Assembly: GCF_024502345.1 (NCBI RefSeq)
Contig: NZ_JALDNN010000001.1
DNA length: 64,000 nt
Direction: 5' to 3' (one strand)
Source: Escherichia coli
GTDB taxonomy: Bacteria; Pseudomonadota; Gammaproteobacteria; Enterobacterales; Enterobacteriaceae
Shown: positions 18,740-18,893 of the stretch, piece by piece
How the letters are laid out: every line of letters begins with the position of its first letter
Position numbering within the stretch: position 1 is the first letter of the stretch
The notes under the pieces: model-generated
What the model was told of the DNA's origin: nothing
Databases searched by the model: none
Seen by the model: only the letters and a program-made list of their open reading frames with translations
Made by a program: the position numbers and the translations under genes

Positions 18740-18893
18740 GAAGGTGAGAGGTTAATGTCTTTCATTTGTGTACCTGATTGCGAACCAATTTAGCATTTGT
18801 TGGCTAGATGGTTTCGCAATGAACTGTTAATAAACAAATTTTTCTTTGTATGTGATCTTTCGTGTGGGTCACCACTGCAAATAAGGATATAAA
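18740..18893 (+). promoter_or_regulatory. thrS leader / translational operator
   Basis: Untranslated leader directly upstream of the thrS ATG; known site of ThrRS autoregulation by tRNA-Thr anticodon-arm mimicry. Confidence 0.6.

Follow-up and report, generated by a model that had tools for sequence, protein, structure and literature searches.

The 64,000-nt stretch of Escherichia coli DNA analysed here (the window) carries, directly upstream of thrS, a region that is almost certainly the translational operator of the thrS mRNA, repressed by threonyl-tRNA synthetase (ThrRS). The element is the already known E. coli thrS operator, and an ordinary one, since it is base for base that of K-12. 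The position of the region, its identity with K-12, the stability and covariation of both operator hairpins and the invariance of the loop GU are established for the window. The binding of ThrRS, its stoichiometry, the exclusion of the ribosome and the competition by tRNA-Thr would be expected to operate here as described in the literature on the identical K-12 sequence. An earlier, sequence-only reading had proposed the thrS operator at this place, and that assignment is upheld by the K-12 identity, by eight numbered bases of the published leader and by two covarying anticodon-like hairpins in 80 other species; nothing of substance speaks against it. For the window, the value of this identification lies in the correct annotation of a textbook example of how translation can be controlled through molecular mimicry. 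The coordinates of the features are listed in Table 1.

Table 1. Features in and around the thrS leader (window positions; energies in kcal/mol; z scores and counts relative to shuffled sequences)
Feature	Positions	Strand	Folding	Remarks
Candidate extended -10 element of the thrS promoter	18717-18725	+		TGT-TAACAT, read from the sequence
Probable transcription start	18732	+		A at -162; 7 nt downstream of the -10 box
5'-terminal hairpin	18734-18776	+	-15.3, z -2.66 (18732-18776 folded alone)	Outside the defined operator
12-codon ORF	AUG 18755 to UAG 18793	+		MSFICVPDCEPI; GAGAGG just upstream
GTAC motif	18768-18774; degenerate copy 18781-18787			GTGTACC, one intact copy
Operator domain 4	18777-18820	+	-18.4, z -5.03, 0/200 shuffles as good	Distal hairpin
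Operator domain 3	18821-18844	+	-0.6, z +0.1	A/U-rich linker, exactly 24 nt
Operator domain 2	18845-18881	+	-10.6, z -2.24	Proximal hairpin (-49 to -13)
Operator domain 1	18882-18896	+	Unpaired	Shine-Dalgarno (SD) UAAGGA 18882-18887; AUG 18894-18896
thrS coding sequence	18894-20822	+		ThrRS, 642 aa; from the ORF list; full-length match to 1qf6

The thrS locus and its correspondence with K-12

The window is part of the E. coli chromosome, and a 590-nt query around the element matched 5425 of the 5426 complete E. coli genomes. The open reading frame downstream of the leader gave a full-length match to the E. coli ThrRS structure 1qf6 (E = 0), its C-terminal 401 residues (242-642) matched the chain of 1kog, and it is annotated as thrS in 5425 E. 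coli genomes. The K-12 thrS operator has been studied by Springer, Romby, Ehresmann, Moras and co-workers, and 1KOG is the crystal structure of ThrRS with domain 2. The downstream gene order, thrS-infC-rpmI-rplT-pheM-pheST, is the same as in K-12. The sequence-only reading had described positions 18740-18893 as the untranslated leader of thrS; this interval does lie directly 5' of the coding sequence and its location is right, but its left boundary falls about 8 nt short if transcription starts at 18732.

The region between 18729 and 18900 (-165 to +6 with respect to the thrS translation start site) showed 100% identity with K-12 MG1655, the difference nearest to the leader being at 18728 (T versus C), in the interval that separates the -10 box from the start site. 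When the A of the ATG was set as +1, all eight bases of the thrS 5' UTR that are numbered in the literature (G-32, G-46, A-13, U-49, A-14, U-48, G-159 and G-68; PMC3936740, legend to Fig. 7, after Sacerdot 1998) fitted the window. Comparison with the published operator had been proposed as a check on the sequence-only reading, and it resulted in agreement both for the 18729-18900 segment and for the eight bases. In all but one of 5425 complete E. coli genomes (5424), the 165-nt leader keeps an identity of 99% or more, and the near invariance of the roughly 160 nt 5' of thrS within the species is attributable to their being the translational operator. The 5425 genomes hold about 74 extra copies of the leader (up to 2 in any one genome, and 2 of them plasmid-borne), the leader of FG92-1 (goose; NZ_CP142677.1, 2121869-2122006) is merely 89.9% identical, and one complete E. 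coli genome of the 5426 gave no match to the leader query.

Transcription is presumed to begin at A18732 (-162), the thrS start site reported by Mayaux et al. (1983) and by Moine et al. (1988), which gives a leader of 162 nt. The candidate -10 box upstream of it aligns with TGTTACCAT, TACTAT and TATCAT boxes at the same place in those relatives that share the distal leader of E. coli (class A, see below). In a simple promoter scan, the TAACAT box was missed and three weak sites further upstream were called. The scan calls include a sigma-70-like TCGTCA-17-TAAAAT at 18497-18525 on the plus strand, some 200 nt further upstream than the classical start; TCGTCA-17-TAAAAT is also the thrS promoter predicted in the thrS-arpB spacer by SELEX-chip (Shimada 2014). 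The differing promoter predictions leave the operator assignment unaffected. No terminator-like hairpin followed by a U-run was found by a terminator scan of 18300-19000.

Several neighbouring features were recorded alongside the leader. Divergent from thrS, on the minus strand (16736-18370), lies a 544-aa ORF with a match to the ShET2 enterotoxin N-terminal domain and weak ankyrin repeats; it corresponds to arpB, a pseudogene in K-12. In strain 90-3040, which is identical over the 590-nt query upstream of thrS, the arpB region is annotated as partial pseudogenes only. On the other side, infC (20826-21368, plus strand; IF3, with both IF3 domains) starts 3 nt after the thrS stop codon with the unusual AUU (ATT AAA GGC GGA AAA), and the ORF listing shows just a shorter TTG ORF for it because ATT is outside the start set of the listing. 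The AUU start codon of infC is the known basis of IF3 autoregulation. Matches above the Rfam gathering score comprised the Phe leader (the pheM attenuator; 22188-22312, plus), STnc540 (26152-26310, plus), the RprA sRNA (50984-51091, minus) and the rydB sRNA (56520-56580, plus).

Predicted folding and anticodon mimicry

The whole leader (18732-18910) was predicted to fold with -50.7 kcal/mol, compared with -37.6 +/- 3.5 kcal/mol for shuffled sequences (z = -3.7; 1 of 200 shuffles was as good). RNA folding had been named in the sequence-only reading as a further check, with the lack of stable paired stem-loops as the outcome that would speak against the operator. Two paired stem-loops with anticodon-like loops were predicted, and both are stable (z = -5.0 for domain 4 and -2.2 for domain 2). 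Five features that mark the thrS operator were found in the window, namely the position as ThrRS leader, domain 2, domain 4, the linker with the SD/AUG segment, and the correspondence with the K-12 sequence.

Domain 4 has an 8-nt loop (AUUUGUUG, 18795-18802) with an anticodon-like UGU at 18798-18800. Domain 2 is composed of a lower stem of 6 bp and an upper stem of 7 bp, separated by an asymmetric internal loop, and of a 7-nt loop (UUCGUGU, 18859-18865) in which an anticodon-like CGU occupies 18861-18863, and it ends one base before the SD, which it abuts. In the split ribosome-binding site, the upstream half is domain 3, which separates the two hairpins; the length of domain 3 agrees with the published description, in which domain 2 extends from -48 to -14 and domain 3 is a 24-nt single-stranded segment (PMC3936740, Espah Borujeni et al. 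2013). Likewise, the SD has been given as UAAGGA within a bipartite, unstructured ribosome-binding site whose halves are separated by the ThrRS-binding hairpin (PMC3858243). When folded alone, domain 3 was essentially unstructured, and so was the SD/AUG segment (18882-18910; -0.9 kcal/mol, z = +0.2). In the minimum free energy structure of the full leader, 18838-18843 also pairs with the SD (18883-18888) in a weak A-U/G-U helix, whereas both segments are single-stranded in the published models.

The sequences of the tRNA-Thr genes were taken from K-12, in which the anticodon loops are UUCGUAA (thrW, anticodon CGU), CUUGUAA (thrU, UGU) and UUGGUAA (thrT, GGU); no tRNA gene was found in the 64-kb window. 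The loop of domain 2 shares 5 of 7 bases with the thrW loop and reproduces positions 32-36, whereas positions 37-38 are AA in the tRNA and GU in domain 2. The loop of domain 4 has UUGU in common with the thrU loop; it contains 8 nt rather than the 7 nt of a tRNA-Thr anticodon loop and is therefore a looser mimic. The stems differ as well, the anticodon stem of tRNA-Thr having 5 bp and that of domain 2 having 7 bp with G-U pairs. Since the operator RNA has no acceptor arm, it would be bound by ThrRS but not aminoacylated.

The 5'-terminal hairpin precedes these domains. Relatives fold at this position too, and the sequence there is not conserved; a role in mRNA stability might be supposed. The AUG of the 12-codon ORF lies within this predicted hairpin, and its stop codon lies inside the 5' strand of domain 4. 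Translation of this ORF, with ribosome movement coupled to the folding of domain 4, would amount to control by a leader peptide, and the SD-like GAGAGG directly before the AUG fits such a role. However, the ORF, which is in frame with a listed 36-aa GTG ORF, contains no Thr codons, its AUG is absent and U-runs stand in its place in the nearest of the aligned relatives, E. albertii (L003), Citrobacter (L012) and Cedecea (L042), and no terminator was found. Leader-peptide control was rejected because the ORF is neither conserved nor supplied with Thr codons, and we regard it as very improbable. The arrangement of an attenuator of the thrL/pheM type, a short ORF rich in the regulatory codon with alternative hairpins and an intrinsic terminator after it, was absent from the leader, in which the 12-codon ORF is the only short ORF with an AUG; the Phe leader of the same window, by contrast, is recognised by Rfam.

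Conservation in Enterobacterales and two classes of distal leader

Comparative evidence for the ThrRS operator was obtained by searching a single genome for each species with the N-terminal 240 aa of ThrRS as query. The 80 closest Enterobacterales loci were retained, which come from genera ranging from Escherichia to Photorhabdus, Pantoea and Erwinia and have a protein identity of 84-99%, and counts given for 81 species refer to these loci together with the window. From domain 2 to the ATG, the 81 sequences aligned nearly gap-free, with AAGGA and the ATG invariant or nearly so. On the E. coli structure of domain 2, 97.7% of the cells were standard pairs, compared with 34-49% when the 3' partners were slid. 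Compensatory changes were detected in 8 of the 13 pairs, and the covariation score was reached by none of 500 shuffles (81 species). The equivalents of G-32 and U-31 were invariant in 81/81 species, and the wobble-equivalent base was C in 76, U in 4 and G in 1; C, U and G are also the bases that the three tRNA-Thr isoacceptors of E. coli carry at the wobble position. Position 18860 (-34), the equivalent of the universally conserved U33 of tRNA, was variable (U in 60 species, A in 15 and G in 6).

A covariance model built from this alignment gave a single match in the window (18841-18899; 85.9 bits, E = 2.5e-21), in a search in which the window itself belonged to the training alignment; no other credible match was found in the 64-kb window, the second reaching 12.1 bits (E = 0.4). 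The thrS leader gave no Rfam match in a search of the whole 64-kb window at the gathering thresholds, and at E up to 10 the region 18350-19050 gave only a chance snoU13 match upstream. No Rfam model covers the thrS operator, and automated RNA annotation therefore misses it; with the alignment and covariance model made here, a family model of the Rfam type would be easy to build. No relevant comparative study of the thrS operator was found in a search of the literature.

The distal part of the leader (about -175 to -50) was found to fall into two sequence classes among the window and its 80 closest relatives. Class A comprises 32 species including E. coli and has a long stem with the loop NNNNGUKG. 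In these 32 species, 14 of the 17 pairs of domain 4 showed compensatory changes, 78.6% of the cells were paired compared with 32-47% when slid, and the loop GU was kept in 30. A rival apical pairing of domain 4, CCAA with UUGG, was rejected, as it showed no compensatory change and one of its pairs is broken in half of the species. Class B comprises 49 of the 80 relatives and has a 6-bp hairpin with the loop AGAGUGAA or close variants; its GU is invariant (49/49), 93.5% of the cells are paired, and 4 of the 6 pairs are supported by compensatory changes. The class B hairpin is probably part of a multi-branch fold that is closed by a long-range helix, for which pairing of GUUAUCAACAG with CUGUUGAUAAU is proposed; this helix is partly supported, with 62.9% of the cells paired in an alignment that is unreliable for distant genera.

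Both classes thus have an 8-nt loop, a near-invariant GU and covarying stems. Their distribution is patchy, with both occurring within Escherichia, Citrobacter and Enterobacter, and the proximal hairpin is nearly fixed across the two. Reportedly, Romby et al. 1996 put forward a symmetrical model in which each ThrRS dimer takes one operator, with one hairpin per subunit. The two distal classes with their near-invariant GU give independent evolutionary support to such symmetrical recognition of two hairpins. We tentatively consider, at somewhat less than an even chance, that symmetrical recognition of two sites by the ThrRS dimer has been maintained while the scaffold of the second mimic was exchanged between the classes. 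The two classes were not described in the literature searched.

Two loci with unusual leaders or genes were observed in this comparison. A contig labelled E. coli SCPM-O-B-8794 (L004; NZ_JAATUR010000048.1, 972-1146) carries a Citrobacter-like class B leader; its thrS coding sequence is 94% identical to that of the window and the genome is of the Escherichia lineage. No counterpart of this leader turned up in a search of 5426 complete E. coli genomes, which suggests recombination with a breakpoint near -50. In Citrobacter freundii M-21 (L009; 1201-1920), the first 720 nt of thrS are about 82% identical to those of two other Citrobacter loci (L005 and L010) and of E. coli. Salmonella diverges less than this, and a mosaic history of the thrS locus itself is hinted at.

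A GTAC-containing motif (GTGTACC / TGTACA) was also noticed two or three times upstream of thrS, at fixed distances of about -143, -127 and -115, in many genera and in both classes. Its frequency was 1.0 per leader versus 0.225 in a control segment, an approximately 4-fold enrichment. RNAalifold paired the first copy with the third, and a single compensatory change supports this pairing. The motif may form RNA helices between palindromic copies or may be a protein-binding site in the DNA.

Proposed mechanism and comparison with other systems

According to the literature, ThrRS binds two stem-loops upstream of the SD, the bound enzyme's N-terminal part collides with the 30S platform so that formation of the initiation complex is blocked, and tRNA-Thr competes with the leader for ThrRS (PMC7373986, PMC11088916, PMC9976931). 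When the anticodon-like triplet is exchanged for that of Met, control passes to MetRS, and G-32A operator mutants have been published for the identical sequence (PMC7373986, PMC11088916, PMC3936740). In the window, the leader of about 162 nt would form the distal domain 4 and proximal domain 2 hairpins, presenting UGU and CGU in their loops, and ThrRS would bind them because they resemble the anticodon arm of tRNA-Thr. A homodimeric ThrRS would take one leader, with one hairpin at each anticodon-binding domain, and would collide with the 30S platform, so that the ribosome could not use the split site, in which domain 3 is joined by the SD/AUG of domain 1. Competition for the same sites is expected from uncharged tRNA-Thr, and the synthesis of ThrRS would therefore track the ratio of free enzyme to tRNA.

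The same leader could be regarded as a 5' UTR that only provides a ribosome standby site and stabilises the mRNA, its resemblance to an anticodon arm being coincidental. Domain 3 and the SD do form a split ribosome-binding site, at which S1 is needed for docking (PMC3858243, PMC3936740), and the 5' hairpin might protect the transcript from 5'-end-dependent decay. However, a standby role does not account for a loop G and U that are invariant in 81 species next to a wobble-type position restricted to C, U or G, nor for a second hairpin with a conserved GU in both sequence classes, and the published genetics on the exact sequence (the G-32A mutants and the switch to MetRS control) also argue against it, as do the specific ThrRS binding and repression already published for the K-12 sequence; this explanation is extremely improbable. 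A T-box riboswitch or transcription-attenuation leader, in which an antiterminator would be stabilised by the pairing of uncharged tRNA-Thr with a specifier codon, has a probability close to nil and is already refuted in practice, for although thrS is T-box regulated in Gram-positive bacteria (PMC3997798) and the leader is long and structured, neither a T-box nor any other Rfam family was found there (18350-19050 at E up to 10; the whole window at gathering thresholds), 18300-19000 has no terminator-like site, and the hairpin adjacent to the SD has no U-tract.

Repression by ThrRS at a translational operator is thus the reading retained for the window, and the closest known system is the K-12 thrS operator itself. 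The two are identical from -165 to +6, share the numbering of the diagnostic bases, the four-domain layout and the downstream gene, and show no difference inside the transcribed leader. In the T-box leaders of Bacillus subtilis thrS and thrZ, the same enzyme is regulated according to tRNA-Thr status through a structured 5' leader, but control acts on transcription termination by direct pairing of the tRNA with the leader, with no protein repressor. Binding of a synthetase to an mRNA stem-loop resembling an anticodon is also known from the autoregulation of the yeast AspRS mRNA and from the anticodon mimics in the mRNAs of yeast HisRS and ThrRS (PMC9976931, PMC7373986, PMC6542539, PMC9956033); these systems are eukaryotic, involve different enzymes and mechanisms, and are not homologous to the thrS operator. 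The S15 (rpsO) and L20 leaders resemble it in that a protein exerts translational feedback by binding, close to the ribosome-binding site, an RNA that imitates its primary ligand (PMC3858243, PMC6524683), and the L20-controlled rpmI-rplT mRNA is encoded in the same window. The S15 leader mimics rRNA and traps the ribosome on a pseudoknot, whereas the thrS operator mimics tRNA and excludes the ribosome.
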